A DNA stretch of 64,000 nt, taken from the sequence record ON528742; one strand, given 5' to 3'. The translations under genes and the position numbers were made by a program. The notes beneath the pieces are model-generated. The model searched no databases and was not told the origin of the DNA. It saw only the letters and a program-made list of their open reading frames with translations. The DNA is from Shigella phage ESh32. Positions within the stretch are counted from its first letter, which is position 1; each line of letters opens with the position of its first letter. Of the stretch, positions 3,119 through 60,182 are shown piece by piece.

Positions 3119-3664
3119 ATGAGAAAAGCACTACTCGCTGGTCTATTGGCCATTTCAATGATGGCACATAGCTCCGAGCATACTTTCAGTAATGTCCAAC
3201 TCGATAACATGCGTTACGCGTATCAATTCGGGGAACAATTTTCTAAGGATGGAAAATATAAAACACACAAAAATATCCACAAGAGCGGATTAGGTCATAT
3301 AATGGCTGCTATTTTATGGCAAGAAAGCTCTGGCGGAGTTAATTTAAAATCTAAACCAAAGCATCACGCTTATGGAATGTTCCAAAATTATTTGCCTACT
3401 ATGCGAGCAAGAGTTAAGGAACTTGGTTATAATATGACCGATGCTGAAATAAAAAGAATGTTGAATAAACGGTCCAATTCAGCTTCCTGGGCGTACATTG
3501 AACTTTCTTATTGGTTAAATATACATAAGGGCGATATAAGAAAAGCAATATCCTCTTATAATTCGGGATGGAATGTTAAAGCTGGTTCTAAATATGCTTC
3601 TGAAGTCCTAGAAAAGGCTAATTACCTTAAAAATAATAAACTTTTGGAAATAGTAAATGACTAA
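3119..3664 (+). CDS. secreted lytic transglycosylase-like protein (SLT-like)
   Basis: N-terminal signal peptide MRKALLAGLLAISMMAHS; WQESSGG and YGMFQ motifs resembling SLT catalytic region. Confidence 0.55.
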   Translation: MRKALLAGLLAISMMAHSSEHTFSNVQLDNMRYAYQFGEQFSKDGKYKTHKNIHKSGLGHIMAAILWQESSGGVNLKSKPKHHAYGMFQNYLPTMRARVKELGYNMTDAEIKRMLNKRSNSASWAYIELSYWLNIHKGDIRKAISSYNSGWNVKAGSKYASEVLEKANYLKNNKLLEIVND

Positions 3665-6378: not shown

Positions 6379-6761
6379 AATTCAGCGACTTTTCACAAAG
6401 TGGAAAACCTTCAAAGGCAGATGAATACTTAGGTTTATTAATGGCTGCACAAGCTTATTTTCATTCTGCACATTTTGAAACTAAAAGTTATGCTAGACAC
6501 AAAGCATACGATTTTATTTTCTCCGAGTTGCCAGATTTGATTGATAAATTTGGTGAGCAATATTTGGGGTATTCTGGTAGAAAATACACGCCTTCAATTC
6601 CAGATGCCAGTAAACTTCCTACCGACACAATTAAAATGATTGATCGCATACTAGACCAATCTAACAGCATTTACAAAGAAATGCCTCCAGCCATTCAAAG
6701 CACGATAGATGATATTACTGGAATGTTTTACCAGAGTAAATATCTTCTTTCCCTCGAATAA
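6375..6761 (+). CDS. hypothetical protein (rI-adjacent)
   Basis: 128-aa ORF; ATGA overlap with rI stop. Confidence 0.55.
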
Positions 6762-6765
6762 CGTT

Positions 6766-6788
6766 AGTCTCCTTCGGGAGACTTTTTT
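6766..6788 (+). terminator. intrinsic terminator (UUCG-loop hairpin + T-tract)
   Basis: agtctccttcgggagact followed by tttttt. Confidence 0.7.
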
Positions 6789-6798
6789 CATTTTACCG

Positions 6799-6829
6799 GT
6801 TTACTTTCCGTTTGAGCTGTGATACTATA
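6799..6829 (+). promoter_or_regulatory. T4-type early promoter
   Basis: ggtttactttcc ... gatactatac; part of a cassette repeated at 47679-47771. Confidence 0.5.
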
Positions 6830-6856
6830 CAACTATCGGATAAAGAGGAGAACATC

Positions 6857-7045
6857 ATGAAAATTGAAGCACTCAATCAAGAAGGAAATATCTACGTTAT
6901 CATTAATGGTGATTTTTTCGTCGACATGGATGAAGTTACTAGTGAAGAACTTGTAGAACTTCTTAAGAAACGTTATAATATGTGTGATGAAGTTGCAACT
7001 CACATGGCGTGTGCAATATTCTCTCTGTCATATGTGGTGGAATAA
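6857..7045 (+). CDS. hypothetical small protein
   Basis: ORF 6812..7045; ATG at 6857 preceded by AAGAGGAG. Confidence 0.5.
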
Positions 7046-7773: not shown

Positions 7774-7940
7774 TGACAAGTGAGCAGGCTTTTAAATTAA
7801 GAGAATTAATTGAGACGTATAGTAAAGCTGTTCATACATCAACAATTATTGATGAATCAGCTTTCTCCGGACATGCTAACAAGATTAAATACAAAACTCT
7901 TATGGAAGAAGCTAAAGTAAATCTTGATTCTTATATTTAA
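7773..7940 (+). CDS. hypothetical small helical protein (tandem family member)
   Basis: 55-codon ORF MTSEQAFKLRELIETYSKAV...; TAATG overlap. Confidence 0.4.
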   Translation: MTSEQAFKLRELIETYSKAVHTSTIIDESAFSGHANKIKYKTLMEEAKVNLDSYI

Positions 7941-7959
7941 ACTTTAATTGGTAAATAAT

Positions 7960-8502
7960 ATGAAAGCTGTAATTGAAACAACTGATTTGTTCGGTGACTT
8001 AGTTATCGAAAAACGCGGTAATGTATACGTTCTGACGCAGGAAGACGATAGTATTACTATTCTTCCTATGGAACTGGCTGCGATTTTATCTTATGCTCCC
8101 TCAGGAGTTACCGGTGTAACTAATATTACAGGTGACCTCCAAGTTCGTTTTTATCGTGGCCTTTACGGCGGTAATATTGAAACTGAATTTATGTGTCTTT
8201 CTATCAGCAATTGGGCAACATTCGTTGTCAAGGTGAAAGAATTCTTAGAATCTGAAACAGTCGAAACACCCGAAAAGGCTAAACTTCAATGGGCTAAAGA
8301 TCGCGGTGCTAACATTATTAATCCAGTAGCTGCAAATTATACTACGACTTTGGATGTCAAGACTTCTTATGAAGATGGCGATGTCGTACTTGTTCGCCAA
8401 AATGATGATTCTCGAGCACATATTGTCACATTTACCAAAGACGAAGCTATTGCGCTAAAGACTTATCTTGATTCTGTCATTCCAACTATGATTTCAAAGT
8501 GA
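7960..8502 (+). CDS. hypothetical protein (paralog of 8509..9030)
   Basis: ORF 7948..8502 (TTG at 7948); ATG at 7960; C-terminus ...EAIALKTYLDSVIPTMISK. Confidence 0.55.
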   Translation: MKAVIETTDLFGDLVIEKRGNVYVLTQEDDSITILPMELAAILSYAPSGVTGVTNITGDLQVRFYRGLYGGNIETEFMCLSISNWATFVVKVKEFLESETVETPEKAKLQWAKDRGANIINPVAANYTTTLDVKTSYEDGDVVLVRQNDDSRAHIVTFTKDEAIALKTYLDSVIPTMISK

Positions 8503-8508
8503 GGAAAT

Positions 8509-9030
8509 ATGTTTATTTCAAGTGGAAGTGGTTTAATTCGTGTTGAATTTAAAAATGATATTTTCCTTATTCAAGGAGATGATATTATTAAAATGAGTTA
8601 TGATGAAATCAAGAAAATTTGTCATACTCTTGAAAGCCGTGGAAACGTAAATGCTGTTATTGACATTGGTGATTTATGGGTAACGCTTTATGAAGTATCC
8701 GAAGGATTTAATATTGAAGATGAAAATAACATTTTAGCTATTGATAAAAGAACTGATTTGTTTGATGTATTAAAAGCCTATGAACAGTCAAATGGTGGAA
8801 GAAAAGCTGTATTGATTTATCAAAAACCACATTCATGCGGAACTGCTTCAATCATTTCAAATATTGAAGGCGAAGCTGATACTTATATGTGTGTTTTAAA
8901 AGCTGGTGGTGACCGTCATCCGGATTTTATTTCTATTCGTCAAAACAATGGAGAAATTTCATTATCAAAATCAGAAGCTGAAGCTATGATTAAGTATTTA
9001 ACAACTGTTACGCCTTCAATGAAAGGATAA
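8509..9030 (+). CDS. hypothetical protein (paralog of 7960..8502)
   Basis: 173 aa; C-terminus ...EAEAMIKYLTTVTPSMKG parallels upstream gene. Confidence 0.55.
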   Translation: MFISSGSGLIRVEFKNDIFLIQGDDIIKMSYDEIKKICHTLESRGNVNAVIDIGDLWVTLYEVSEGFNIEDENNILAIDKRTDLFDVLKAYEQSNGGRKAVLIYQKPHSCGTASIISNIEGEADTYMCVLKAGGDRHPDFISIRQNNGEISLSKSEAEAMIKYLTTVTPSMKG

Positions 9031-9032
9031 TT

Positions 9033-9494
9033 ATGATTATTAATGAAAATTCTTGGCATTATAAATTATTCAAATTGTTTAACGATGAATGGCAACGACC
9101 TAAGACACTATGCGCATATTTTTGGTCTATTGCCATTCCTACATTTTTCGTTTCTATTTTTGGATGTACTATACTCGTAGGGCTAACAATTATTTGTGCA
9201 GAAAGCCTACAACGTTGGCTTATTTTCGGTAGTTTATGGACTCTTCTTCCATCGGCATTTATATTTGCGCTTTTGGCTGTTTTACTTATTATTGGTTCAT
9301 TTGTTATTCCTGTACATTTGCGTGAAAAATATAAAGATTATAAATGGAAAAAGGATTATGCTTTACACGTAGAAAACATTGATAGGAAAAATAAAGGTTT
9401 ACCTCCTATTCAACCCAAGAAATCGATTATCGTTGAATTTTTAAAAGCTCGTAAAGCTAAAGTATGTCCTGTTATTGAATATAAGGCTGAATGA
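9033..9494 (+). CDS. integral membrane protein
   Basis: 153 aa with at least three hydrophobic helices. Confidence 0.55.
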   Translation: MIINENSWHYKLFKLFNDEWQRPKTLCAYFWSIAIPTFFVSIFGCTILVGLTIICAESLQRWLIFGSLWTLLPSAFIFALLAVLLIIGSFVIPVHLREKYKDYKWKKDYALHVENIDRKNKGLPPIQPKKSIIVEFLKARKAKVCPVIEYKAE

Positions 9495-10505: not shown

Positions 10506-10531
10506 AGGGAGCCTTCGGGCTCCCTTTTTTA
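10506..10531 (+). terminator. intrinsic terminator
   Basis: agggagccttcgggctccct + tttttt. Confidence 0.8.
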
Positions 10532-10554
10532 TTTCAAAAATTTTTCACAAAGTT

Positions 10555-10584
10555 GTTTACAAGCATAAAGCTTTATGGTACTAT
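10555..10584 (+). promoter_or_regulatory. T4-type early promoter with A/T-rich upstream element (cassette copy A)
   Basis: aaaaatttttcacaaagttgtttacaag ... atggtactat. Confidence 0.6.
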
Positions 10585-10618
10585 ACAACTATCAACTGAT
10601 ACGGATTTGGAGAATAAA

Positions 10619-11587
10619 ATGAAAACTGTAACTATCAATAAGGGTATCTACTTCGGTAAAGAAATCTCTGGAACTTTTGAGCTCTTAGGCGAATGGTTCC
10701 CAGATAATGCTCCGGTAGATGCACAAGGAGATGGTAAAGTTTTTGTTGAAATTGACGGTAAACGTCGCGGTGTTTGGGTTTACAAATCAGACATTTCATA
10801 TGATGGTGTAAAAGTTGAAGAAGTTAAAGAATCATATGAAGATATGAAAACCCGCATTAATAAAAGATTTAATGTTATGGGAATGATGACGAATGGTATT
10901 ATTAACGGAAACATTCGTTCATTAATTATCTCTGGTGCGGCGGGTATTGGTAAAACGTATTCTTTAGATAAAGCTTTAAATAAAGCAAATGATATTGGAT
11001 ACATTGAATATAAAAGCATTAACGGTAAAATCTCCGGTATCGGTCTTTATGAGCAGCTTTGGAATAATCGTGAAGAGAATTCTGTCCTTTTGATTGATGA
11101 TGTGGATGTTTTCTCTGATATGGACATTCTTAATCTTCTGAAAGCTGCTCTGGACACCGGAGAGACCCGTAAAGTCTGCTGGAGCACCGCATCTTCTTAC
11201 TTAGAAGAAAAAGGCATTGAGCGTGAGTTTGAATTTAAAGGAACGATTGTTTTTATCACAAACGTTGACATTGACCGCGAATTAGACCGTGGTACTAAAC
11301 TTGCTCCACATTTACAAGCATTAGTGTCCCGCTCAGTTTATTTGGATTTGGGTGTTCACACTAATGAAGAAATTATGGTCAGGGTTGAAGATGTTATTCT
11401 TTCAACTGACATGATGCAAAAGCGCGGTCTTTCTGATGAAGAAACTTATAAAGCATTATCATGGATGAAAGTCAATGTTAATCGTTTACGCAATGTTTCA
11501 CTGCGTACTGCTCTTTATCTTGCTGACTTTATTATGACCGACAAAAACGGTTGGGAAGAAATTGCTGAAACGGTATTATTAAAATGA
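10619..11587 (+). CDS. AAA+/P-loop ATPase
   Basis: Walker A GAAGIGKTY, Walker B VLLIDDVD; ATG at 10619 after GGAG in the conserved leader. Confidence 0.65.
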   Translation: MKTVTINKGIYFGKEISGTFELLGEWFPDNAPVDAQGDGKVFVEIDGKRRGVWVYKSDISYDGVKVEEVKESYEDMKTRINKRFNVMGMMTNGIINGNIRSLIISGAAGIGKTYSLDKALNKANDIGYIEYKSINGKISGIGLYEQLWNNREENSVLLIDDVDVFSDMDILNLLKAALDTGETRKVCWSTASSYLEEKGIEREFEFKGTIVFITNVDIDRELDRGTKLAPHLQALVSRSVYLDLGVHTNEEIMVRVEDVILSTDMMQKRGLSDEETYKALSWMKVNVNRLRNVSLRTALYLADFIMTDKNGWEEIAETVLLK

Positions 11588-12690: not shown

Positions 12691-12720
12691 GTTTACAAGA
12701 CCGTTCCTCTGTGGTACTAT
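12691..12720 (+). promoter_or_regulatory. T4-type early promoter (cassette copy B)
   Basis: gtttacaagaccgttcctctgtggtactat. Confidence 0.6.
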
Positions 12721-12748
12721 ACAACTATCAACTACGGAGGAACAGAAA

Positions 12749-13276
12749 ATGAATGCTAAAGATATTTTCAACCTGGTAAATTACAACGATGGTAAATTTA
12801 AATCAGAAGCACAAAGCAAGTTCTTTAATGACATCTCAATCGGAGGTGAAATCACGGTTGACGGAGGACAAATTTACAAATCCCGTTGGAATTGGATCGT
12901 TATTATTGACGAGATCGGTATTGTAGAAATTTACAAAAATACGAATAAAAATCGTACATTACACTGGTCTCGTGATACTAACGAACAGTACAAAAAGGAT
13001 AAAGCATCTAAATTATCTCGTGTAACTCAAGAAGATATTGAGTTCATCAAGAAAGATATTTTGATGTATGATAACTTAATTGCTGAAGAGCAAGCTGTTA
13101 TTGATAAATTTGACGAGATTAAAGCTTCTCGTGAAATTCCTGATTTTATGAAAGAATCAGTAAATGAACGATACACTCTCATTTCAGAGCGTATTGAAAC
13201 TTACAAAAAGCAAAGAGCTGAACGCCAGAATACTCTTCGGAAGTTTGAAGAACGGTTAAAGACGGTACTCGCATAA
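12749..13276 (+). CDS. hypothetical protein with C-terminal coiled coil
   Basis: ORF 12689..13276; ATG at 12749 after GGAGG; C-terminal heptad-like helix. Confidence 0.55.
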   Translation: MNAKDIFNLVNYNDGKFKSEAQSKFFNDISIGGEITVDGGQIYKSRWNWIVIIDEIGIVEIYKNTNKNRTLHWSRDTNEQYKKDKASKLSRVTQEDIEFIKKDILMYDNLIAEEQAVIDKFDEIKASREIPDFMKESVNERYTLISERIETYKKQRAERQNTLRKFEERLKTVLA

Positions 13277-16772: not shown

Positions 16773-17702
16773 ATGAAAACTCGTAAACATTATATTGATT
16801 ATTTTGACAGTCTTATTACTAAACATCGTAATTATCAGATCGGACACAGAGCAGTAATCAATAATATTCTTCGTGATTTCCTTCAATATGTTGGCCAGGA
16901 AAATCATATCTGTAAAGATACTCAAAACGCTTATTCTCATTCGTTAGGCAATTTGCTTGAATGGTTTAAACGTTCTCGTATGTTATCTTCTACTATAGCT
17001 CGTGATAACATTAAAAACTTTATGAAGCCGAGCTTCATTAAATCTGAGACATCTATAACCGATTTGGTTCAATTTACTATTGTTAACGATGTTAAAAAGA
17101 CCCATTTGGCTGATTGGTTATCTACCATTCCTGAAACTAAATTTGCTGATAAATTTGCTTGTCAATTCAATACCCAAGTGAATATGCTTTTTAAGCATGC
17201 TCGCAAACTGTTTACCGCGGGCGATGATCGTACAAATACAGTTCATGTTAAGGACTGGGTTATTGCTGATGAAGTAACACACAAGCCAGGTGGTTCATCA
17301 GTATTAATTAATATCCAGGTTCCTTATTATTACTCACGTAATCTCGGCACCATGACAGCTAAAGAAATTAATAAGCACAACAAAACTATTCGTTCGTTGT
17401 CTTATAAACTCCGCATGATGTTAAAAATTATGGACGTAGTGGAAATGTATGACGAAACCGAAGATAATGGTTCAATGTTATACAGTTCACGCATTCTAAT
17501 TAAACTGAAGAACCCTAATACATATAAGACAGTTGTAAAAGAGCCTAAAGTAGAAAAGGTTGATAATCTGGGTGAAGAACGTGAATATCTCAATGCCCGT
17601 TTGACTGAAGTTGAAAAACAAATTGAAGAGCATACTAAAGTTCTTAAGGCTTTAACCGCCAAAGCAAATGGTTTACGTAATGCTATTGAGGTATTGAAAT
17701 GA
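16773..17702 (+). CDS. hypothetical protein with C-terminal coiled coil
   Basis: 309 aa. Confidence 0.6.
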   Translation: MKTRKHYIDYFDSLITKHRNYQIGHRAVINNILRDFLQYVGQENHICKDTQNAYSHSLGNLLEWFKRSRMLSSTIARDNIKNFMKPSFIKSETSITDLVQFTIVNDVKKTHLADWLSTIPETKFADKFACQFNTQVNMLFKHARKLFTAGDDRTNTVHVKDWVIADEVTHKPGGSSVLINIQVPYYYSRNLGTMTAKEINKHNKTIRSLSYKLRMMLKIMDVVEMYDETEDNGSMLYSSRILIKLKNPNTYKTVVKEPKVEKVDNLGEEREYLNARLTEVEKQIEEHTKVLKALTAKANGLRNAIEVLK

Positions 17703-18088
17703 AAAAGCGTTTATTAGAAGACATTGCAGCTTCAAGTAATTCCAGTTTAATTAAAATTATTATGGCTGGTGAGGAAGATGATATGGAAATGCGTGGAAAG
17801 ATTCACGGCTGCGACGATTTAGATTTTAAACCTCCAGCATGGGATGCTATTATGGCTATGGTTGAACGACGTGAAAGAGCTTCTAAAAACGTTCCTAATT
17901 GCCCTGAATGCGGTACTGAACAAGTTCAGTTGATTAACTGGCGTAAACCAGAGCTTGAATATAAATGCCGTCAATGTAAACATAAATTCAGTAAGCATGC
18001 TCCGGAAATGGTTAAATTGCCTGACTCTACTGAGTTCTTTAAAGAACTTGTGAGTGTTCAACCAATGCCTAATAATATTTTGGATTAA
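17699..18088 (+). CDS. zinc-ribbon protein
   Basis: CPECGTEQ...CRQCKHKF four-Cys motif; ATGA overlap upstream. Confidence 0.55.
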
Positions 18089-18993: not shown

Positions 18994-19314
18994 ATGACTA
19001 TTAAAAATAAATTAGATGTTGATGCAGTTCTGAGCGAAATCATTGAAGACCATGATGCATTTTCGGAAAACTATGATTTCGATTTTTCCGACTATCTTAA
19101 ACCTATCGAAATAGAAGACTGGGTGCAAGATGGTAAATGTCAATATCGTCAGTGTGTTTACTTTAGTCCAAAACATAATGTACATGTAGCGGTAAATGAA
19201 TCTCGGTCAGGTTCTTATCATTCTGACTGGTATTATGCAGTTCCGACTGTTGAACTAGTCGAGCCCCATGAACGTGTAGTAACTCAGACAGTACGAGAAT
19301 GGATTACGCTATAA
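18994..19314 (+). CDS. hypothetical protein
   Basis: 106-aa ORF. Confidence 0.5.
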   Translation: MTIKNKLDVDAVLSEIIEDHDAFSENYDFDFSDYLKPIEIEDWVQDGKCQYRQCVYFSPKHNVHVAVNESRSGSYHSDWYYAVPTVELVEPHERVVTQTVREWITL

Positions 19315-27036: not shown

Positions 27037-27060
27037 AAACCAAAACAAAGAGGATATTAA

Positions 27061-28263
27061 ATGAAAGTATGTATTTTTATGGCTCGAGGTCTTGAAGGTT
27101 GTGGTGTAACAAAATTCTCACTCGAGCAACGTGATTGGTTTATTAAAAATGGTCATGAAGTGACTTTGGTTTATGCTAAAGATAAATCATTTACTCGTAA
27201 TTGCGCGCATGATTATAAATCATTTTCAATTCCGGTTTTATTGGCAAAAGAATACGATAAAACACTTAAGCTGGTAAATGATTGTGATATTCTAATTATC
27301 AATTCAGTTCCTGCTACTTCGGTTGAAGAAGACACTATTAATAACTATAAAAAAATTATTGATAACATTAAACCTTCTGTTCGTGTTGTAGTTTATCAGC
27401 ATGACCATTCTTCTCTTTCTTTGCGTCGAAATTTGGGATTAGAAGAAACTGTTCGTCGAGCTGATGTTATTTTTAGCCATTCTGATAATGGTGATTTTAA
27501 TAAAGTTCTGATGAAAGAATGGTATCCTGAAACAGTTTCTCTGTTTGATGATATTGAAGAAGCACCGACCGTATATAACTTTCAGCCTCCTATGGATATT
27601 GCGAAAGTTCGATCAACCTATTGGAAAGATGTTTCTGAAATTAATATGAATATCAACCGTTGGATTGGTCGTACGACTACATGGAAAGGTTTTTATCAGA
27701 TGTTTGATTTTCACGAAAAACATCTTAAACCTGCAGGACTAAGTACTATTATGGAAGGTCTGGAACGTTCTCCAGCGTTCATTCCTATTAAAGAAAAAGG
27801 AATTCCATACGAGTATTATCGTCTTCATCAAGTAGACCAAATTAAAATTGCTCCTAATTTGCCAACGCAAATTCTTGACCGTTATGTAAATAGCGAAATG
27901 CTTGAACGTATGAGTAAATCCGGTTTTGGTTATCAGTTGAGTAAGTTGGATAAAAAATATCTACAGCGCTCTTTAGAATATACTCATCTCGAGCTTGGTG
28001 CATGTGGAACAATTCCGGTATTTTGGAAATCTACTGGCGAAAATTTAAAATTCCGTGTTGATAATACTCCTTTGACCTCGCATGATAGCGGTATCATTTG
28101 GTTTGATGAAAATGATATGGAATCAACATTTGAACGTATTAAAGAACTGTCATCTGACCGAGCTCTTTATGACCGTGAGCGAGAAAAAGCATATGAATTT
28201 TTGTATCAGCACCAAGATTCAAGCTTCTGCTTTAAAGAACAGTTTGACATTATTACAAAATAA
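27061..28263 (+). CDS. a-gt: DNA alpha-glucosyltransferase
   Basis: 400 aa; matches remembered T4 alpha-gt (CIFMARGLEGCGVTKFSLEQRDWFIKNGHEVTLVYAKDKSF...). Confidence 0.9.
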   Translation: MKVCIFMARGLEGCGVTKFSLEQRDWFIKNGHEVTLVYAKDKSFTRNCAHDYKSFSIPVLLAKEYDKTLKLVNDCDILIINSVPATSVEEDTINNYKKIIDNIKPSVRVVVYQHDHSSLSLRRNLGLEETVRRADVIFSHSDNGDFNKVLMKEWYPETVSLFDDIEEAPTVYNFQPPMDIAKVRSTYWKDVSEINMNINRWIGRTTTWKGFYQMFDFHEKHLKPAGLSTIMEGLERSPAFIPIKEKGIPYEYYRLHQVDQIKIAPNLPTQILDRYVNSEMLERMSKSGFGYQLSKLDKKYLQRSLEYTHLELGACGTIPVFWKSTGENLKFRVDNTPLTSHDSGIIWFDENDMESTFERIKELSSDRALYDREREKAYEFLYQHQDSSFCFKEQFDIITK

Positions 28264-38088: not shown

Positions 38089-38124
38089 TCAATATCAACT
38101 ACTGATACGGATTTGGAGAATGAA

Positions 38125-38505
38125 ATGAAAATCGCTATTTTGGTTATTGCATTAGGTCTTACTGGTTGTGTGGCTCAAGGACCGGTAGTAAATCAGTCTG
38201 ATGTAGGAAAAATTGTAAACTGTTCAAGCAAATTTTATAATCCTAATGTCAAGTGTTATAAAGAAGCTCCAAATCAAACAGTCGAACAAATGCAGGCGAA
38301 TTTTGACGAAGCTATTCGTCCAGATGAATCTGCTCAAGCATATCGTAATTCTGATGTAATTACACGCGAAGAAAAAATTGAAAACTACTGCGCCGAGCTT
38401 TGGGCTAATTGGGCTAATAATTACCAATGGCGTACTGGTAAAAATGCTCCGATGGAGTATGTAGTGAATTCTTATAATTCATGTGTAAAAAATTTGACTA
38501 AGTGA
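38125..38505 (+). CDS. lipoprotein
   Basis: signal peptide with lipobox LTGC; ATG at 38125 (track ORF starts at TTG 38113). Confidence 0.55.
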   Translation: MKIAILVIALGLTGCVAQGPVVNQSDVGKIVNCSSKFYNPNVKCYKEAPNQTVEQMQANFDEAIRPDESAQAYRNSDVITREEKIENYCAELWANWANNYQWRTGKNAPMEYVVNSYNSCVKNLTK

Positions 38506-38917: not shown

Positions 38918-39658
38918 ATGATTAGTGACTCTATGACAGTTGAAGAAATCCGTCTTCATTTGGGGCTTGCATTAAAAGAAAAAGATTTCGTAGTTGATAA
39001 AACTGGTGTTAAAACTATTGAAATTATTGGCGCATCATTTGTAGCAGATGAACCGTTTATTTTTGGCGCTCTTAATGATGAATACATTCAGCGTGAACTT
39101 GAATGGTATAAATCTAAGAGCTTGTTTGTTAAAGATATTCCAGGTGAAACACCAAAGATTTGGCAGCAGGTCGCATCTTCTAAAGGCGAAATTAATTCGA
39201 ATTACGGTTGGGCTATTTGGTCAGAAGATAACTACGCCCAGTATGATATGTGTTTAGCTGAACTTGGTCAAAACCCTGATTCTCGACGTGGTATTATGAT
39301 TTATACTCGTCCATCCATGCAATTTGACTACAATAAAGATGGTATGTCAGATTTCATGTGTACTAATACAGTACAGTACCTGATTCGTGATAAGAAAGTC
39401 AATGCAGTAGTAAGCATGCGCTCAAATGACGTGGTCTTCGGATTCCGTAATGATTATGCATGGCAAAAATACGTATTAGATAAATTAGTATTTGATTTGA
39501 ATGCCGGCGATTCAACTCGTCAGTATAAAGCAGGTTCTATTATATGGAATGTCGGAAGTCTTCATGTATATTCTCGTCATTTTTACTTGGTTGATCATTG
39601 GTGGAATACTGGCGAAACTCATATTGTGAAAAAAGACTATAAAGGTGAGTGGAAATGA
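38918..39658 (+). CDS. 42: dCMP hydroxymethylase gp42
   Basis: 246 aa; thymidylate-synthase-like fold; matches remembered T4 gp42. Confidence 0.9.
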   Translation: MISDSMTVEEIRLHLGLALKEKDFVVDKTGVKTIEIIGASFVADEPFIFGALNDEYIQRELEWYKSKSLFVKDIPGETPKIWQQVASSKGEINSNYGWAIWSEDNYAQYDMCLAELGQNPDSRRGIMIYTRPSMQFDYNKDGMSDFMCTNTVQYLIRDKKVNAVVSMRSNDVVFGFRNDYAWQKYVLDKLVFDLNAGDSTRQYKAGSIIWNVGSLHVYSRHFYLVDHWWNTGETHIVKKDYKGEWK

Positions 39659-40497
39659 TTCAATTCGTAATTCCAAGTTATCAGCGTGTCGGGGCAGTTT
39701 CTGCCCTTGATATGTTTCCGACTGATTATGAACCCCATATTGTAGTGCGTGAACATGAAGAAAAAGCTTATTATGATGCCTATGGGTCTAGAGCTAAAAT
39801 TATAACTATTCCTGATGATGTAAACGGAATTGCCGGTACTCGTAAAGCAATTACTGATATGTATGCAGGTCAACGAATCTGGATGATTGACGATGATACT
39901 ACTATTCGTATGAGTTCAATGCGAAAAAGAGATGACCGTCGTTGTGTGGATAAAGTCAATCAATTAACCCGTGAACAGTTCTATGAATTGATTCAATACG
40001 TCGAAGATGCCATGGATTGTGGGTATTATCACGGTCATGCTCGTCTACCTATTTTTAAAATTACTTCATCTTGGGGTAATTATCGTGAAAATTCATATGG
40101 ATTCACGAATACATGGTATGACCTCGGAAAACTTACTACAGAACAAATTGGGTATGGAAAAATTGATTTGTGCGAAGATATGTATGCATTTCTCAATTTA
40201 ATTAATCAAGGTTATCCGCATTTGGCCTTGTTCAAATATCTGGTTGTATCTGGAAAAGCACAAGCTCCTGGCGGGTGCAGTTCAATTCGTAGTAATTCTA
40301 AACATAATAGAGCGCTTGAGCAAATCAATAGAGAGTTTCCAGAGCAAGCTCGTTGGAAAACTTCTAATATTGAAAAACGAAAATCGTTGGGTGAAGAAGA
40401 CGAGCCATTAAAGGTTCTTCGCATGTGTGTTTCGCGCAAAGAAAAATCAGAAGCATTTCATAAGTTTAATGCTATTCATCCGATAGCAGTTGATTAA
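39649..40497 (+). CDS. GT-A fold glycosyltransferase at the beta-gt locus
   Basis: DxD motif WMIDDDT; unrelated to remembered T4 beta-gt sequence. Confidence 0.6.
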   Translation: MEMIQFVIPSYQRVGAVSALDMFPTDYEPHIVVREHEEKAYYDAYGSRAKIITIPDDVNGIAGTRKAITDMYAGQRIWMIDDDTTIRMSSMRKRDDRRCVDKVNQLTREQFYELIQYVEDAMDCGYYHGHARLPIFKITSSWGNYRENSYGFTNTWYDLGKLTTEQIGYGKIDLCEDMYAFLNLINQGYPHLALFKYLVVSGKAQAPGGCSSIRSNSKHNRALEQINREFPEQARWKTSNIEKRKSLGEEDEPLKVLRMCVSRKEKSEAFHKFNAIHPIAVD

Positions 40498-40521
40498 TGC
40501 CTAAATTTATTGTGTTATAAT
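40497..40521 (+). promoter_or_regulatory. weak candidate middle promoter upstream of uvsX
   Basis: TGCCTAA (imperfect MotA box), 12 nt, TATAAT. Confidence 0.3.
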
Positions 40522-40574
40522 TACTCTATCTTTAACCAGTGAGGAAAATATAATGATGCCTATGGAAAAAATGA

Positions 40575-41756
40575 ATGTCTATTGCAGATTTAAAATCCCG
40601 TTTGATTAAAGCTTCAACTTCTAAAATGACTGCTGAACTGACTACATCTAAATTCTTTAATGAAAAGGATGTAATCCGTACAAAAATCCCAATGCTTAAT
40701 ATTGCTATTTCTGGTGCGATTGATGGCGGCATGCAGTCTGGTTTAACTATTTTCGCAGGGCCTTCTAAACACTTTAAATCAAATATGTCTTTGACTATGG
40801 TTGCGGCATATTTGAACAAATATCCTGACGCGGTTTGTCTATTCTATGATAGCGAATTTGGTATCACTCCAGCTTATTTGCGATCTATGGGAGTTGACCC
40901 GGAACGAGTAATTCATACACCAATCCAGTCAGTTGAACAGCTGAAAATTGATATGGTGAACCAGCTTGAAGCTATTGAGCGTGGTGAAAAGGTTATTGTA
41001 TTCATCGACTCAATTGGTAATATGGCTTCTAAGAAAGAAACGGAAGATGCCTTGAATGAAAAATCTGTGGCAGATATGACTCGTGCTAAATCACTGAAGT
41101 CATTATTCCGTATTGTTACTCCTTACTTTAGCATTAAAAATATTCCATGTGTTGCGGTTAACCATACAATTGAAACAATTGAAATGTTTAGTAAAACCGT
41201 GATGACAGGCGGTACAGGCGTAATGTATTCGGCTGATACTGTATTCATTATCGGTAAACGTCAGATTAAAGATGGTTCTGATCTTCAGGGATATCAATTT
41301 GTTCTAAATGTAGAAAAATCTCGTACCGTTAAAGAAAAAAGTAAATTCTTTATTGATGTTAAATTTGACGGTGGTATCGATCCTTATTCTGGATTGTTAG
41401 ATATGGCTCTAGAATTAGGATTTGTAGTAAAACCTAAAAATGGCTGGTATGCTCGTGAATTTCTTGACGAAGAAACCGGTGAGATGATTCGCGAAGAAAA
41501 ATCTTGGCGTGCAAAAGATACCAACTGCACTACATTCTGGGGTCCTTTATTTAAGCATCAACCATTCCGAGATGCTATTAAACGTGCTTATCAGTTAGGT
41601 GCTATTGATAGTAATGAAATTGTTGAAGCTGAAGTTGATGAATTGATTAACTCAAAGGTTGAAAAATTTAAATCTCCAGAAAGTAAAAGTAAATCAGCAG
41701 CTGATTTAGAAACTGACCTCGAGCAGTTAAGTGATATGGAAGAATTTAATGAATAA
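40575..41756 (+). CDS. uvsX: RecA-like recombinase UvsX
   Basis: 393 aa; Walker A GPSKHFKS; matches remembered T4 UvsX. Confidence 0.95.
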   Translation: MSIADLKSRLIKASTSKMTAELTTSKFFNEKDVIRTKIPMLNIAISGAIDGGMQSGLTIFAGPSKHFKSNMSLTMVAAYLNKYPDAVCLFYDSEFGITPAYLRSMGVDPERVIHTPIQSVEQLKIDMVNQLEAIERGEKVIVFIDSIGNMASKKETEDALNEKSVADMTRAKSLKSLFRIVTPYFSIKNIPCVAVNHTIETIEMFSKTVMTGGTGVMYSADTVFIIGKRQIKDGSDLQGYQFVLNVEKSRTVKEKSKFFIDVKFDGGIDPYSGLLDMALELGFVVKPKNGWYAREFLDEETGEMIREEKSWRAKDTNCTTFWGPLFKHQPFRDAIKRAYQLGAIDSNEIVEAEVDELINSKVEKFKSPESKSKSAADLETDLEQLSDMEEFNE

Positions 41757-44384: not shown

Positions 44385-45017
44385 ATGATTTATTATATGC
44401 ACAAAAATCCACCGTTTAAATACGGTAAATTTCCTGATGCACAATGTTATAATATAACGCCTGATGAAAATAACCGTGGATATCTTATTGGCACAATTTT
44501 TGTAATTGTTAAAGATAACGAAATCGTTGCCTGGGCAGATTTTAAAGGTACAACACATGATGTTAATCCGGTGCCTTTCACATATTACAATATAATGGAT
44601 TTGGCATATGATTATAATTGGTTTAATCATGACACGTTGGCTCATATTGAAGGTGTAGGATTTGACATCTCTTATTCTAGCTACTCGTTGTGTCCTATGA
44701 GTCGGGCTCATAAAGAACCTGAATATTTTTCATTTAGGAAACGTGTAAACTTTAAACGCAACACAGAGTATGTCGGTGGAATCTTTGTTAAAGATAATCG
44801 AATTATTCGTATTAATTATCCTTTGAGCGTTAGTCAAAAAGATATTGATGTTGATTTAGATTTCACTGAAAATAATATTAATCATATTGCTTCTGTGTAT
44901 TTTGGTATCGATCACAAAATTGTAATATGTGGATATGAATTACCGTTTGAAGAACAGTCTAAAGTAAATGTTTCTATTGACGATCAAATTTTTAATGCTT
45001 TTATGAATAAAGGTTAA
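44385..45017 (+). CDS. hypothetical protein (shares C-terminal motif with next gene)
   Basis: ORF 44376..45017 (GTG 44376); ends ...SIDDQIFNAFMNKG. Confidence 0.55.
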   Translation: MIYYMHKNPPFKYGKFPDAQCYNITPDENNRGYLIGTIFVIVKDNEIVAWADFKGTTHDVNPVPFTYYNIMDLAYDYNWFNHDTLAHIEGVGFDISYSSYSLCPMSRAHKEPEYFSFRKRVNFKRNTEYVGGIFVKDNRIIRINYPLSVSQKDIDVDLDFTENNINHIASVYFGIDHKIVICGYELPFEEQSKVNVSIDDQIFNAFMNKG

Positions 45018-45018
45018 T

Positions 45019-45375
45019 ATGTATAGTTCTGAATTTTCATATTTAAAAATGGAAAAAATTTCATACGATTTTATAGATGAAAAGGTTTATTATAGTTTCC
45101 ATGAACCACGTTTTAATAGTGAGGTTGGGTTTATTGTAGTAAAAGACAATTTCATTTTAAAGATATATTCGGCATTAAAGGATTTTCACTACGAAAATAT
45201 TAACCTAAAATTTGATAAAGAAAACGTTCGTAATTGTGCAGTAACAATTACAGGAAATAAAGGTACGTGTGTTATGTTATCTGATGAAATTAATGATTTG
45301 CTAAATGATGCCGAAAAGGTTGCTATTCCATCTATTGATGACCAAATTTTTAATGCTTTTATGAATAGAGGTTAA
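45019..45375 (+). CDS. hypothetical protein (shares C-terminal motif with previous gene)
   Basis: 118 aa ending ...SIDDQIFNAFMNRG. Confidence 0.55.
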   Translation: MYSSEFSYLKMEKISYDFIDEKVYYSFHEPRFNSEVGFIVVKDNFILKIYSALKDFHYENINLKFDKENVRNCAVTITGNKGTCVMLSDEINDLLNDAEKVAIPSIDDQIFNAFMNRG

Positions 45376-45376
45376 T

Positions 45377-45541
45377 ATGAAAACATATAAAGAATTTATT
45401 AAAGAAGATATGGTAGCTGGAGATTCAGGTGGTAATCCTGAAAATATCTCTACTGGAACAACATCAGGTGCTGTAGTAAATAAAGGTCCTGAACAGATTC
45501 CTAAAAAGAAAAAAGAGGAATCTAAAGAAAAAGAAGAGTAA
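45377..45541 (+). CDS. possible lysine-rich small protein
   Basis: 54 codons read from sequence. Confidence 0.4.
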   Translation: MKTYKEFIKEDMVAGDSGGNPENISTGTTSGAVVNKGPEQIPKKKKEESKEKEE

Positions 45542-46769: not shown

Positions 46770-46782
46770 ATGTCCTCCTTAT

Positions 46783-46806
46783 TGCTTTATATATTTATTG
46801 TATAAT
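46783..46806 (+). promoter_or_regulatory. candidate MotA-dependent middle promoter for gene 56
   Basis: TGCTTTA, 11 nt, TATAAT. Confidence 0.5.
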
Positions 46807-46840: not shown

Positions 46841-47359
46841 ATGGCTTACTTTAACGAATGTTCACAACTGATTGAAGGCGCTGATAAAGCTCAAAATGAA
46901 TATTGGGATATTCTCGGTGATGAAAAAGACCCGCTGCAGGTAATGCTCGATATGCAGAAATCTCTGCAAGTTCGTTTAGCTAAAGATAAACCTGAATATA
47001 ATCGTCATCCTGATGACTTGGCTACTGCAGGTGAAGTTGTTGATTGGTTGCGTAATCAGAAAGATTATATTGACGATGAATTCCGTGAACTTCTGACTTC
47101 TCTTGGTGGTATGAGCAATGGTGAAAAAGATGCATCTGCTGTATGGAAACCTTGGAAGTCGCAGCATGGTGAACGTCGTGAAACTCTGATTACTGATTTG
47201 TCTCCACAAGACCAATTGGAAATTAAATTTGAAATGATTGATATTCTCCATTTCGTTCTGAACATGTTCCAAGGTCTTGGTCTTACAGCAGAAGAAATCT
47301 TTAAACTTTATTATCTAAAAAATGCCGAAAACTTTGCTCGTCAAGACCGAGGTTATTAA
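46841..47359 (+). CDS. 56: dCTPase/dCDPase gp56 (MazG-like)
   Basis: ORF 46748..47359; ATG at 46841 gives 172 aa MAYFNECSQLIEGADKAQNEYWDILGDEKDPLQ... Confidence 0.85.
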   Translation: MAYFNECSQLIEGADKAQNEYWDILGDEKDPLQVMLDMQKSLQVRLAKDKPEYNRHPDDLATAGEVVDWLRNQKDYIDDEFRELLTSLGGMSNGEKDASAVWKPWKSQHGERRETLITDLSPQDQLEIKFEMIDILHFVLNMFQGLGLTAEEIFKLYYLKNAENFARQDRGY

Positions 47360-47389
47360 CAGCTCGTCTTAAAAGCCGCGAGAATTTAT

Positions 47390-47397
47390 TATAAATA
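47390..47397 (+). promoter_or_regulatory. late promoter TATAAATA upstream of soc
   Basis: exact TATAAATA about 30 nt upstream of soc ATG. Confidence 0.6.
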
Positions 47398-47427: not shown

Positions 47428-47673
47428 ATGGCTAGTACTCGCGGTTATGTTAATATCAAAACATTTGAGCAGAAATTAGATGGAAATAAGAAAATTGAAG
47501 GAAAGGAAATTTCAGTAGCTTTCCCTCTTTATTCTGACGTTCACAAAATTTCTGGCGCTCATTACCAGACATTCCCTTCAGAAAAAGCAGCATATACTAC
47601 TGTATATGAAGAAAATCAACGTGCTGCATGGATTGCTGCAAATGAAGATTTGTGGAAAGTAACTGGTGAATAA
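47428..47673 (+). CDS. soc: small outer capsid protein Soc
   Basis: 81 codons MASTRGYVNIKTFEQKLDGNKKIEGKEISVAF...; matches remembered T4 Soc. Confidence 0.85.
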   Translation: MASTRGYVNIKTFEQKLDGNKKIEGKEISVAFPLYSDVHKISGAHYQTFPSEKAAYTTVYEENQRAAWIAANEDLWKVTGE

Positions 47674-47678
47674 ATTCA

Positions 47679-47704
47679 AGGACTCCTTCGGGAGTCCTTT
47701 TTTC
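47679..47704 (+). terminator. intrinsic terminator
   Basis: aggactccttcgggagtcct + tttttt. Confidence 0.8.
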
Positions 47705-47712
47705 ATTTTATG

Positions 47713-47742
47713 GTTTACTTTCCAAAATGAGTATGGTATAAT
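47713..47742 (+). promoter_or_regulatory. T4-type early promoter
   Basis: gtttactttccaaaatgagtatggtataat. Confidence 0.6.
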
Positions 47743-47768
47743 AAAAATATCTTATAGAGGAGAACACC

Positions 47769-47981
47769 ATGTTAAATCGTTGGATTAAACCAAATGAAGA
47801 CCTCCAGAAGGTTCTTGATAAAGCTATCTCTGATAAATGGGGTATGAAAAGCTGGGATTGTGATATCGTCACGCATTCATTCATGATGCATGCAGATGGT
47901 TCAGTCGAGTTCAATGCTGAAATGCGATACACTGACTGGGGTGGATTTCAAAGAGTCGAATTTCAAAGAGGCTTTTTGTAA
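47769..47981 (+). CDS. hypothetical protein
   Basis: 70 aa; AGAGGAG RBS. Confidence 0.5.
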   Translation: MLNRWIKPNEDLQKVLDKAISDKWGMKSWDCDIVTHSFMMHADGSVEFNAEMRYTDWGGFQRVEFQRGFL

Positions 47982-49811: not shown

Positions 49812-49841
49812 GTTTACTTTCCTTTCTAACGATGATATGAT
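49812..49841 (+). promoter_or_regulatory. T4-type early promoter
   Basis: aaaaagttgtttactttcctttctaacgatgatatgat. Confidence 0.55.
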
Positions 49842-49867
49842 AGCTTCTGAAGTATACGGAGGCTATC

Positions 49868-50491
49868 ATGATTATTAATCCTGCAGATGTTGAACAGTTA
49901 TCTATAAAAGCTGAAAGCGTTGATTTTCAATATGATATGTATAAAAAAGTCTGTGAAAAATTTACTGACTTTGAGCAGTCTGTTCTTTGGCAATGTATGG
50001 AAGCCAAAAAGAATGAAGCTCTTCATCGGCAATTGAATAAAATCATTAAAAAGCATTTAACTAAATCACCTTATCAGTTATATCGCGGTATATCAAAATC
50101 GACAAAAGAACTTATTAAAGATTTACAAGTTGGAGAAGTGTTTTCAACGAACAGGGTAGATTCATTTACTACTAGTTTGCACACAGCATGTTCTTTTTCT
50201 TATGCTGAATATTTCACTGAAACAATACTTCGTTTAAAAACTGATAAAGCTTTTAATTACTCTGACCATATCAGCGATATTATACTTTCTTCTCCTAATA
50301 CTGAGTTTAAGTATACATATGAAGATACTGATGGGCTAGATTCAGAGCGTACTGATAACTTAATGATGATTGTGCATGAACAAGAATGGATGATTCCAAT
50401 TGGAAAGTATAGAATAACTTCTATTTCAAAAGAAAAATTACACGATTCATTTGGAACATTTAAAGTTTATGATATTGAGGTAGTTGAATGA
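49868..50491 (+). CDS. modB: ADP-ribosyltransferase ModB-like
   Basis: R-S-ExE ART triad (LYRG, TTS, EQEWMIP); 207 aa. Confidence 0.65.
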   Translation: MIINPADVEQLSIKAESVDFQYDMYKKVCEKFTDFEQSVLWQCMEAKKNEALHRQLNKIIKKHLTKSPYQLYRGISKSTKELIKDLQVGEVFSTNRVDSFTTSLHTACSFSYAEYFTETILRLKTDKAFNYSDHISDIILSSPNTEFKYTYEDTDGLDSERTDNLMMIVHEQEWMIPIGKYRITSISKEKLHDSFGTFKVYDIEVVE

Positions 50492-56714: not shown

Positions 56715-56832
56715 ATCAATATCAACTACTGATATAGAAAATAATTTGGAGAATAAAATGGAAAATTTGCCAAAGGTGCTGCTACTCTTCTGAAATGCAT
56801 CGCTCCAATGTTCAATTAACGAGGAAATTGTA

Positions 56833-58364: not shown

Positions 58365-60182
58365 ATGATTAAGAATGAAATTAAAATTCTGAGCGATATT
58401 GAACATATCAAAAAGCGTAGTGGCATGTATATTGGCTCTTCTGCTAATGAAATGCATGAGCGCTTTCTGTTTGGTAAATGGGAAAGTGTTCAGTATGTAC
58501 CTGGTCTTGTTAAGCTTATTGATGAAATTATCGATAACTCAGTAGATGAAGGTATTCGTACTAAGTTTAAATTCGCAAATAAAATTAATGTTACTATTAA
58601 AAACAATCAAGTAACAGTTGAAGATAACGGTCGCGGTATTCCACAGGCGATGGTTAAAACACCTACCGGTGAAGAAATTCCTGGTCCTGTTGCTGCATGG
58701 ACTATTCCAAAAGCAGGTGGTAACTTTGGTGATGATAAAGAACGTGTCACCGGTGGTATGAATGGTGTTGGTTCTAGTTTAACTAACATTTTTTCTGTGA
58801 TGTTTGTCGGTGAAACTGGCGATGGTCAAAATAATATTGTAGTTCGTTGTTCAAATGGCATGGAAAATAAATCCTGGGAAACTATTCCAGGAAAATGGAA
58901 AGGAACCCGTGTTACTTTCATTCCTGATTTTATGTCATTTGAAACTAATGAGCTGTCCCAAGTTTATCTTGACATTACACTAGATCGTCTCCAGACACTT
59001 GCTGTTGTTTATCCTGATATTCAATTTACTTTTAATGGTAAAAAGGTTCAGGGCAATTTTAAGAAATATGCACGACAGTATGATGAACATGCTATTGTTC
59101 AAGAACAAGAAAATTGTTCTATTGCGGTTGGTCGTTCACCGGATGGTTTTCGTCAATTAACTTACGTGAATAACATTCATACTAAGAATGGTGGCCATCA
59201 CATTGACTGTGTTATGGATGATATTTGCGAAGACCTTATTCCACAAATCAAACGTAAATTCAAAATTGATGTAACTAAAGCACGCGTTAAAGAATGTTTG
59301 ACTATCGTTATGTTTGTTCGTGATATGAAAAACATGCGATTTGATTCTCAAACTAAAGAGCGTTTGACTTCTCCATTTGGCGAAATTCGTAGTCATATTC
59401 AGCTTGATGCTAAAAAGATTTCACGCGCTATTCTAAATAATGAAGCAATTTTAATGCCGATTATTGAAGCTGCTTTAGCACGTAAATTGGCGGCAGAAAA
59501 AGCAGCAGAAACTAAAGCAGCTAAAAAGGCTTCTAAAGCTAAGGTTCATAAACATATCAAAGCGAATCTTTGTGGTAAAGATGCTGACACTACTCTTTTC
59601 TTGACTGAGGGTGATTCTGCTATCGGATATCTTATTGATGTTCGTGATAAAGAACTTCATGGTGGTTATCCATTGCGCGGTAAAGTTCTTAATAGTTGGG
59701 GTATGTCATATGCTGATATGCTTAAAAACAAAGAACTATTTGATATTTGCGCAATCACTGGATTAGTTCTTGGTGAAAAAGCTGAAAACTTGAATTATCA
59801 TAATATTGCTATTATGACCGATGCTGACCATGATGGTTTAGGAAGCATTTATCCTTCTCTGCTCGGATTTTTTAGTAATTGGCCAGAACTGTTTGAACAA
59901 GGAAGAATTCGCTTTGTCAAAACTCCTGTAATCATCGCTCAGGTCGGTAAAAAACAAGAATGGTTTTATACAGTCGCTGAATATGAGAGTGCCAAAGATG
60001 CTCTACCTAAACATAGCATCCGTTATATTAAGGGACTTGGCTCTTTGGAAAAATCTGAATATCGTGAGATGATTCAAAACCCAGTATATGATGTTGTTAA
60101 ACTTCCTGAGAACTGGAAAGAGCTTTTTGAAATGCTCATGGGAGATAATGCTGACCTTCGTAAAGAATGGATGAGCCAGTAG
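58365..60182 (+). CDS. 39: DNA topoisomerase II ATPase subunit gp39, unsplit (T4 gp39 + gp60 equivalent in one ORF)
   Basis: 605 aa from ATG at 58365 (track ORF starts GTG 58362); GHKL ATPase N-terminus; C-terminus continuous through MTDADHDGLGSI...RKEWMSQ. Confidence 0.9.
   Translation: MIKNEIKILSDIEHIKKRSGMYIGSSANEMHERFLFGKWESVQYVPGLVKLIDEIIDNSVDEGIRTKFKFANKINVTIKNNQVTVEDNGRGIPQAMVKTPTGEEIPGPVAAWTIPKAGGNFGDDKERVTGGMNGVGSSLTNIFSVMFVGETGDGQNNIVVRCSNGMENKSWETIPGKWKGTRVTFIPDFMSFETNELSQVYLDITLDRLQTLAVVYPDIQFTFNGKKVQGNFKKYARQYDEHAIVQEQENCSIAVGRSPDGFRQLTYVNNIHTKNGGHHIDCVMDDICEDLIPQIKRKFKIDVTKARVKECLTIVMFVRDMKNMRFDSQTKERLTSPFGEIRSHIQLDAKKISRAILNNEAILMPIIEAALARKLAAEKAAETKAAKKASKAKVHKHIKANLCGKDADTTLFLTEGDSAIGYLIDVRDKELHGGYPLRGKVLNSWGMSYADMLKNKELFDICAITGLVLGEKAENLNYHNIAIMTDADHDGLGSIYPSLLGFFSNWPELFEQGRIRFVKTPVIIAQVGKKQEWFYTVAEYESAKDALPKHSIRYIKGLGSLEKSEYREMIQNPVYDVVKLPENWKELFEMLMGDNADLRKEWMSQ

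Follow-up and report, generated by a model that had tools for sequence, protein, structure and literature searches.

Two intergenic segments of Shigella phage ESh32, at positions 6766-6859 (copy A) and 47679-47771 (copy B) of the 64,000-nt stretch of DNA that was analyzed (sequence record ON528742; hereafter, the window), are known regulatory junctions of T4, each made up of a terminator, a strong early promoter, and a ribosome-binding site (RBS) and each at its own conserved site. An earlier note, made from the letters of the window alone, had described them as a duplicated and portable terminator-promoter-RBS cassette that marks a transcription-unit boundary. The boundary is well supported and had been documented previously for T4, but "duplicated" is too strong a word for a resemblance that is owed largely to a common grammar at two sites, both ancient and fixed. 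We consider it very probable that each segment is a compact transcription-unit junction of the PeSL (promoter-early stem-loop) type and that the likeness between the two comes from a shared blueprint together with probable old kinship, possibly with exchange. The architecture of such junctions, and the recombination-linker role proposed for them, were published in 2010 and 2014, and the pair is of small value as a discovery, both being textbook examples of regulatory junctions in a T4-type phage. What the analysis does bring out is the extent to which an apparent duplication in a T-even genome can be promoter and terminator grammar and not recent copying.

Setting and parts of the two junctions

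The window is from a Tequatrovirus (T4-like), with 99.6% identity to phage NBEco003 over the 2 kb tested, and its orientation is reversed with respect to the T4 map. Mapped to T4, copy A is the intergenic region between rI.-1 and mobD.5, and copy B is that between soc and mrh.2, these neighboring genes having been identified with BLAST and Pfam. They are separated by 40.9 kb, with essential replication genes between them. Both segments start 5 nt past the upstream stop codon, and the distance from stop codon to ATG is 99 nt in each case (from 6759-6761 to 6857 in A and from 47671-47673 to 47769 in B). The sequence blocks quoted in the earlier note lie where it placed them and in the same order in both segments. 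The parts are as follows.

6759-6761, + strand: TAA stop codon of rI.-1 (a DUF5856 protein), upstream edge of cassette A
6766-6783, + strand: terminator hairpin of cassette A, AGTCTCC-UUCG-GGAGACT, 7 bp stem with a C(UUCG)G tetraloop (fold, terminator scan, compensatory stem changes in orthologs)
6783-6788, + strand: T-run of cassette A, putatively both U-tract and T-rich promoter upstream element, positions -52 to -47
6799-6804, + strand: -35 region of cassette A, GTTTAC, of the T4 early-promoter type
6820-6828, + strand: extended -10 of cassette A, TG-A-TACTAT
6844-6850, + strand: Shine-Dalgarno sequence (SD) of cassette A, AGAGGAG
6857-7045, + strand: mobD.5, 62 aa, no Pfam family, first gene of the transcription unit begun by cassette A
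47671-47673, + strand: TAA stop codon of soc (small outer capsid protein), upstream edge of cassette B
47678-47699, + strand: terminator hairpin of cassette B, AAGGACUCC-UUCG-GGAGUCCUU, 9 bp stem (fold, terminator scan, compensatory changes in orthologs)
47698-47703, + strand: T-run of cassette B, putatively both U-tract and promoter upstream element, positions -51 to -46 (exactly the register of the family consensus TTTTTCA)
47713-47718, + strand: -35 region of cassette B, GTTTAC (-35 of P(E) 14.98 in the T4 annotation)
47734-47742, + strand: extended -10 of cassette B, TGG-TATAAT (-10 of P(E) 14.98 in the T4 annotation)
47756-47762, + strand: SD of cassette B, AGAGGAG
47769-47981, + strand: mrh.2, 70 aa, no Pfam family, first gene after cassette B

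Architecture and proposed working

The order of elements is the same in A and B: a GC-rich C(UUCG)G hairpin, six Ts, GTTTAC, a spacer of 17 nt (counted from TTTACT), TGn, and the -10. GAGGAG lies about 15 nt past the -10, and AGAGGAG stands 6 nt before the ATG. Each hairpin has the makings of an intrinsic terminator, with a stem of 7 bp in A and 9 bp in B followed by T6, and both were picked by a terminator scan. The folds amount to -10.8 kcal/mol (z = -2.4) for A and -15.1 kcal/mol (z = -3.6) for B. Among 10 distinct hairpins, 95% of the cells of the stem pair and 7 of the 9 pairs have changed on both sides. The covariation score is 0.81, while shuffles score 0.21 and slid partners no more than 0.30. 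At locus B alone, GGACUCC/GGAGUCC is replaced by GGAAUCC/GGAUUCC. A search of Rfam returned no family at gathering score anywhere in the window.

The promoters carry the elements by which a T4 early promoter (Pe) is known, namely GTTTAC, TGn, TAnnnT, and a T/A-rich upstream region, and lie on the early-transcribed strand. The -10 of cassette A is weak in this isolate, in which TACTAT follows TGA, not the TGG of most relatives (T4 and most relatives have TGGTACTAT here); this is a minor allelic difference from T4, as is TTTTATGG in place of TTTAAATGG in the linker of B. The T4 deposit X01416, dating from 1984, labels the palindrome of B "put. transcription termination t 15.02" and assigns its -35 and -10 hexamers to a putative promoter, P(E) 14.98, and at the position of B, the record of Yersinia phage fPS-2 lists a terminator together with a predicted early promoter. 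The T4 records AF158101 and NC_000866, in the copies examined, contain CDS features only, without regulatory annotation, and a literature search found no genome-wide mapping of T4 transcription start sites or terminators. For the mobD.5 promoter, reverse-transcriptase stops have been obtained by primer extension on T4-infected cells (Durand et al., PMC1702504).

The distance from loop to -35 is 21-23 nt in 12 cassettes drawn from both loci and at least five lineages. In those 12 hairpin cassettes, a T-run at -53 to -46 is followed by C(A/G), and this T-run is in register (±1) with TTTTTCA, the consensus at -50 to -44 of the hairpin-less early promoters of the window. The analysis thereby documents that the U-tract of the terminator and the T-rich upstream element of the promoter are the same bases; the coincidence suggests dual use of the T-run, which would explain the fixed spacing and much of the identity of the second block.

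On this basis, the junctions may be envisaged as working in the following way. Beyond rI.-1 or soc, the UUCG hairpin and its U-tract would terminate incoming transcription, and the T-run would double as the T-rich upstream element of a strong σ70 T4 early promoter. That promoter would begin a new early transcript, with a short leader that brings GAGGAG and the ATG of mobD.5 or mrh.2. The likeness of A to B would have two causes: a single, tightly constrained blueprint (early-promoter consensus, UUCG hairpin, and overlapping T-run) and, probably, the descent of both from old relatives within the early-promoter cassette family, possibly with occasional sequence exchange. The sequence features, the predicted fold, the covariation of the stems, the conservation at orthologous sites, and the earlier annotation and primer extension in T4 are observations. 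Termination and initiation at A and B are expected by analogy with T4, and the efficiency of termination, the dual use of the T-run, and the source of the residual similarity between A and B are what we infer. A more elaborate proposal, in which the junctions are coupled, such that polymerase released at the terminator is handed to the adjacent promoter, and A and B are homogenized by short-tract gene conversion, strikes us as quite unlikely.

Extent of the likeness between A and B

In a global gapped alignment, 75 of 97 columns are identical (77%), compared with 49.5% (S.D. 2.8, maximum 57%) for mononucleotide shuffles; the resemblance is beyond chance. A and B are each other's best match among the cassettes of the window, the other 14 early-promoter cassettes having 49-63% identity to one or the other. 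Generic elements supply 33 of the 75 identical columns (hand count). When the generic positions are masked (CUUCGG, T-run, -35, TGn/-10, GAGGAG, and ATG, 36 columns in all, counted by hand on the global alignment), identity is 42 of 61, or 69%, and stays above the 60% that the earlier note had set as the floor for its reading. In an ungapped promoter register, A and B are 56% identical at non-consensus positions, second among 120 pairs. The residual similarity is not fully explained by the generic blueprint and, given the masked identity and this rank, some shared history or exchange between A and B is likely.

The likeness is uneven from one end of the segments to the other. The near-identical blocks are the hairpin core, the T-run with CATTTTA, the -35 block, and the RBS block. 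CTCCTTCGGGAG occurs at 6769 and 47683 only (0.06 occurrences expected by chance in the window), and GGTTTACTTTCC is found in exact form at 6798 and 47712 only, whereas AGAGGAGAACAnCATG, present at 6844 and 47756, has a third copy at 2637, before regB. The spacer between -35 and -10 is only 25% identical, the family mean being 43%, and the -10 and leader of cassette A (TACTATACAACTATC) are the same as those of the promoters at 10555 and 12691 and unlike those of copy B. Within the stem, CUCC/GGAG is common to the inner part of both, where most other copies in the window have GGGC/GCCC; the outer bases differ between A and B and are locus-specific throughout. The genes downstream are unrelated, as had been claimed, with no BLASTP alignment between the mobD.5 and mrh.2 proteins.

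The early-promoter family of the window

Early promoters of the extended consensus number at least 16 in the window, all on the + strand and each followed by an SD and an ATG. The promoter part of A and B is a member of this family of at least 16 and not a two-copy repeat. Indeed, the direct repeats of the window are mostly sub-families of early promoters and UUCG hairpins, the A/B pair being family D17. UUCG hairpins with a stem of at least 5 bp number 15 on the + (transcribed) strand and three, all weak, on the - strand, and within the window, a hairpin lies directly upstream of a promoter in A, B, and 10506-10584 only. The other members to which we refer are as follows.

2593-2652, + strand: family member before regB, with early promoter GTTTACTTTTCC...TATAAT and RBS block AGAGGAGAACAACATG (2637-2652)
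10506-10584, + strand: sole other composite of terminator and early promoter, with hairpin AGGGAGCC-UUCG-GGCUCCCU at 10506-10525 and -35 at 10555
12691-12751, + strand: family member with the -10 and leader TACTATACAACTATC of cassette A
49812-49870, + strand: family member with GTTTACTTTCC in common with A and B; modB by T4 coordinates

In the composite at 10506-10584, the distance from loop to -35 is 37 nt and the promoter has a separate TTTTTCA element. Leaders fall into sub-families, each shared by two to four otherwise different promoters: ACTGATACGGATTTGGAGAAT-AAATG is found at 10595-10625, 38101-38131, and 56734-56764, and TACTATACAACTATC is found at 6823, 10579, and 12715. The existence of such discrete sub-families suggests that promoter, leader, and RBS have been mixed as modules within the early-promoter family.

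Two further observations concern hairpins. At least seven near-identical ones have the form AAGGGC-UUCG-GCCCUU (24630, 28269, 32979, 35175, 58302, 63583, and 63811). Another, with a stem of 14 bp at 49836-49870, spans everything from the -10 hexamer of the 49812 early promoter to the SD and the ATG at 49868 (modB by T4 coordinates). It would form in read-through transcripts only, hiding the ribosome-binding site, and the hiding of an RBS in this manner is a known T4 device.

The shared RBS block (GGAGAACA...) might be thought a target of the RegB/S1 endoribonuclease, through which early mRNAs are inactivated: the third copy lies before regB, and positions 1-8 fit the consensus of single-stranded sites, GGAGRAYARAA (PMC1702504). 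We judge this most improbable. Cleaved RegB sites of T4 never have C at position 7 or 9 (PMC1702504), whereas C occupies position 7 in all three copies and, in B, the excluded position 9 as well (A is GGAGAACAUCA, with C7; B is GGAGAACACCA, with C7 and C9). Moreover, the mobD.5 transcript is insensitive to RegB in T4 (PMC1702504), and published primer extension thereby refutes a RegB/S1 site in copy A.

Recent copying, separate origins, or exchange

Cassettes A and B are both found at orthologous positions in Tequatrovirus, Dhakavirus (JS98), and Gaprivervirus (VR7), and B is found also in Mosigvirus (RB69). The flanking proteins of those phages of other genera are about 45-57% identical to those of the window, and neither copy can therefore be recent. 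This bears directly on the reading that A and B are a recently duplicated, portable unit of terminator, promoter, and RBS that is copied or moved between sites and travels with genes. The exact core (CTCCTTCGGGAG...TTTTTTCATTTTA...GGTTTACTTTCC) is likewise confined to two loci, since all seven of the viral-collection (IMG/VR) matches lie at locus A or B, and none of those matches places it in a third context. The spacers (25% identical), -10 elements, and leaders of A and B are unrelated, and their outer stem bases are unlike and locus-specific. A recent duplication would fit with the 77% identity of A and B (at most 63% for any other cassette of the window), with a 27-nt exact run common to B and to A in some relatives, and with gene differences at locus A, where the cassette of JS98 is followed by an unrelated gene and RB69 lacks four genes. 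We nevertheless rate it very unlikely, and a recent A/B duplication is largely refuted. A duplicated, portable cassette is weakly supported; fixed orthologous positions and a core found in no third context tell against it. A looser form of the core pattern retrieved from IMG/VR the orthologs together with generic look-alikes in an unrelated 183-kb phage. A mobile cassette was rejected as a class, as contexts other than the A and B loci share generic architecture only.

At the other extreme, the two junctions could have had entirely separate origins and have come to look alike because each has to combine a UUCG terminator with an overlapping T4 early promoter and a strong SD. The window abounds in UUCG hairpins, GTTTAC promoters, and GAGGAG SDs, generic elements make up 33 of the 75 identical columns, and the RBS block is found again at regB. 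Furthermore, the unrelated 183-kb phage and a Klebsiella phage have very similar composites of hairpin, T-run, and GTTTAC in other contexts. Convergence of this pure kind is doubtful, given the 69% identity left after masking, the standing of A and B as top match for one another, and their rank of 2 among 120 at non-consensus promoter positions. In addition, the non-generic details that they have in common (inner stem CTC/GAG, CATTTTA, TTTCC, and AGAGGAGAACA) exceed what the blueprint needs.

The composites outside the T-even group can be described more closely. In IMG/VR contigs L031 (the 183-kb phage, 3504-3534) and L035 (5835-5865), AAGAGGCC-TTCG-GG(T/C)CTCTT precedes TTTTTCATTTATTAT, GTTTAC, and a -10 of sequence TACTAT. 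The flanks hold no homologs of the window, and neither an SD nor an ATG is obvious downstream. The terminator-promoter grammar of A and B therefore extends beyond the T-even group.

Between these extremes lies concerted evolution, in which A and B are old paralogous sites subject to occasional short-tract ectopic homologous recombination (gene conversion). Identity between A and B within a genome (0.73-0.74 in the window and 0.68-0.70 in JS98) is as high as that between orthologs across genera (0.63-0.75), and there are tracts specific to a lineage, TTTTTTCATTTTA..GGTTTACTTTCC in Tequatrovirus and CCTTTTTTCGTTTTAGTA in JS98. A minority allele of B (phage G8) resembles the B of the outgroup, whereas the majority allele resembles A. 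In VR7, though, A-B identity (0.62) is lower than the identity of A to its ortholog (0.75), and the B-specific outer stem lies inside the putative converted tract, which does not fit a single simple tract. Differences of 5-10 nt in about 100 nt of strongly constrained sequence are weak evidence, and parallel A/G transitions could mimic the pattern; a comparison of orthology with paralogy over four genera gave no clean split, the sequences being short and constrained. Concerted evolution is rather unlikely, although the alignments hold hints of occasional exchange between sites A and B. Our preferred reading remains that of one blueprint at two old and probably related sites.

The soc/mrh.2 region of VR7 (L044; 14755-14831 of the record) departs from this pattern. 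The UUCG hairpin and T-run are kept without GTTTAC, and TTTGCTTTT is located 11-13 nt before TGGTATAAT. Judged by its motifs, this site looks like a MotA-box middle promoter, which would amount to a change of promoter class at a conserved site.

Reshuffling and breakpoints

The earlier note had held the pair to be consistent with cassette-mediated reshuffling, a hypothesis that was already in print. It fits locus B. Both soc and mrh.2 have two alleles, 35-60% identical in 50-nt bins, all four combinations exist, and between the divergent alleles cassette B is an island of 88-98% identity. The alleles of cassette B are themselves mosaic and, taken with the four combinations, this indicates that crossovers resolve inside the cassette. 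Of mrh.2, the window has the minority allele. It is matched at 95% identity or more by 120 phage records, and 602 fall below 60%, among them the T4 type (about 59%). The first 12 codons are the same in both alleles. At locus A, the JS98 cassette is followed by a 78-aa ORF unrelated to mobD.5, and RB69 is without rI.-1, mobD.5, mobD.4, and mobD.3. The reassortment of soc and mrh.2 and these gene differences agree with the published PeSL idea but are not specific to it.

Other observations point away from the cassettes. A breakpoint also lies at the opposite edge of the mrh.2 module (about 47969-47981), where there is no cassette. The flanks of locus A are 94-100% conserved within Tequatrovirus. 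Over the whole window compared with T4, 24 of 38 sharp identity transitions fall at gene junctions, none of the 38 falls inside any cassette, and two are located about 30 nt into the gene that follows one. Cassettes are borne by 15 of 112 gene junctions, and no enrichment of breakpoints at cassettes was found between window and T4. Most of the large breaks relative to T4 mark homing-endonuclease genes and an intron that T4 alone has. For this pair of genomes, this is a small negative result for PeSL reshuffling, with breakpoints favoring plain gene junctions and homing-endonuclease insertions. Cassette-mediated reshuffling is, then, partly supported: allele combinations at soc/mrh.2 and the gene swap in JS98 speak for it, and the window itself, with its cassette-less mrh.2 edge and lack of transitions in cassettes, provides no specific support.

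The homing-endonuclease genes that are missing or replaced in comparison with T4 are mobD, mobC, mobB, segA (with the b-gt region), segF, and mobA, and the I-TevII intron of T4 nrdD is also missing or replaced. The sites involved are 7784-9490, 20970, 22269, 27045-27070, 39640-40587, 47359-47390, and 59782-59834. T4 segment 2806-3911, comprising mobA, 60.1, and part of gene 60, is absent from the window, and the topoisomerase subunit is therefore probably unsplit and without the gene-60 bypass element. At 46780-46801, T4 16825-17725 (containing the dam methyltransferase gene) has no counterpart, and the homologous blocks on either side are about 20 bp apart. Elsewhere, direct repeats of 49 nt that are 94% identical (44973-45021 and 45331-45379), each with a gene 3' end, an SD, and an ATG, flank some 310 bp missing in T4, and in T4 coordinates the two adjoining blocks share 19128-19176. 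As an example of an insertion, deletion, or tandem gene duplication bounded by repeats, this is cleaner than the A/B pair.

Comparison with known systems

PeSLs are motifs of T4-like phages in which a terminator and a promoter are combined (Arbiol et al. 2010, PMC2839356; Comeau et al. 2014, PMC4122927). Like A and B, they consist of an AT-rich region and a stem-loop just upstream of a σ70-type early promoter, followed by an SD and a start codon. The stable stem-loop adjoining the promoter, in PeSLs a terminator or attenuator, is present in A and B on the evidence of fold and covariation, its terminator activity being a prediction, and AT-rich sequence (TTTTTTCATTTTA) lies upstream of the -35 in both copies, with SD and ATG in place. 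The promoter consensus of T4/PST PeSLs is TTTACW-N17-TAYWAT (PMC4122927), and both promoters fit it (TTTACT-17-TACTAT in A and TTTACT-17-TATAAT in B). PeSLs of RB49/phi1 differ in having GGGG...CCCC stems in place of UUCG-tetraloop hairpins. PeSLs in general have been proposed to act as linkers for homologous exchange between modules (PMC2839356; PMC4122927), with which the reassortment of alleles around cassette B agrees. The route by excision of a mini-circle is not viable between A and B, since a crossover between sites 40.9 kb apart would remove the essential genes between them.

T4 early promoters have GTTTAC at -36 to -31 (PMC1524935) and have been described in terms of UP, -35, TGn, and -10 (PMC2988021). 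The T4 counterparts of the two promoters (P(E) 14.98 and the mobD.5 promoter) have the same elements at the same genomic positions as A and B.

Tuerk et al. are said to have described, in 1988, C(UUCG)G tetraloop hairpins in T4 intercistronic regions and intrinsic terminators. The T4 hairpins and those of A and B are alike in their UUCG loop closed by C-G, their GC-rich stem, their U-run, and their restriction to the transcribed strand.

The morons of lambdoid phages also resemble the present case, being small genes bracketed by their own transcription signals. Their insertion is attributed to illegitimate recombination, and they often have the opposite orientation and a deviant GC content (PMC2839356; PMC1524935). 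Unlike those of morons, the signals of A and B are conserved as a family, point the same way as the early transcription units, and occupy fixed orthologous sites.
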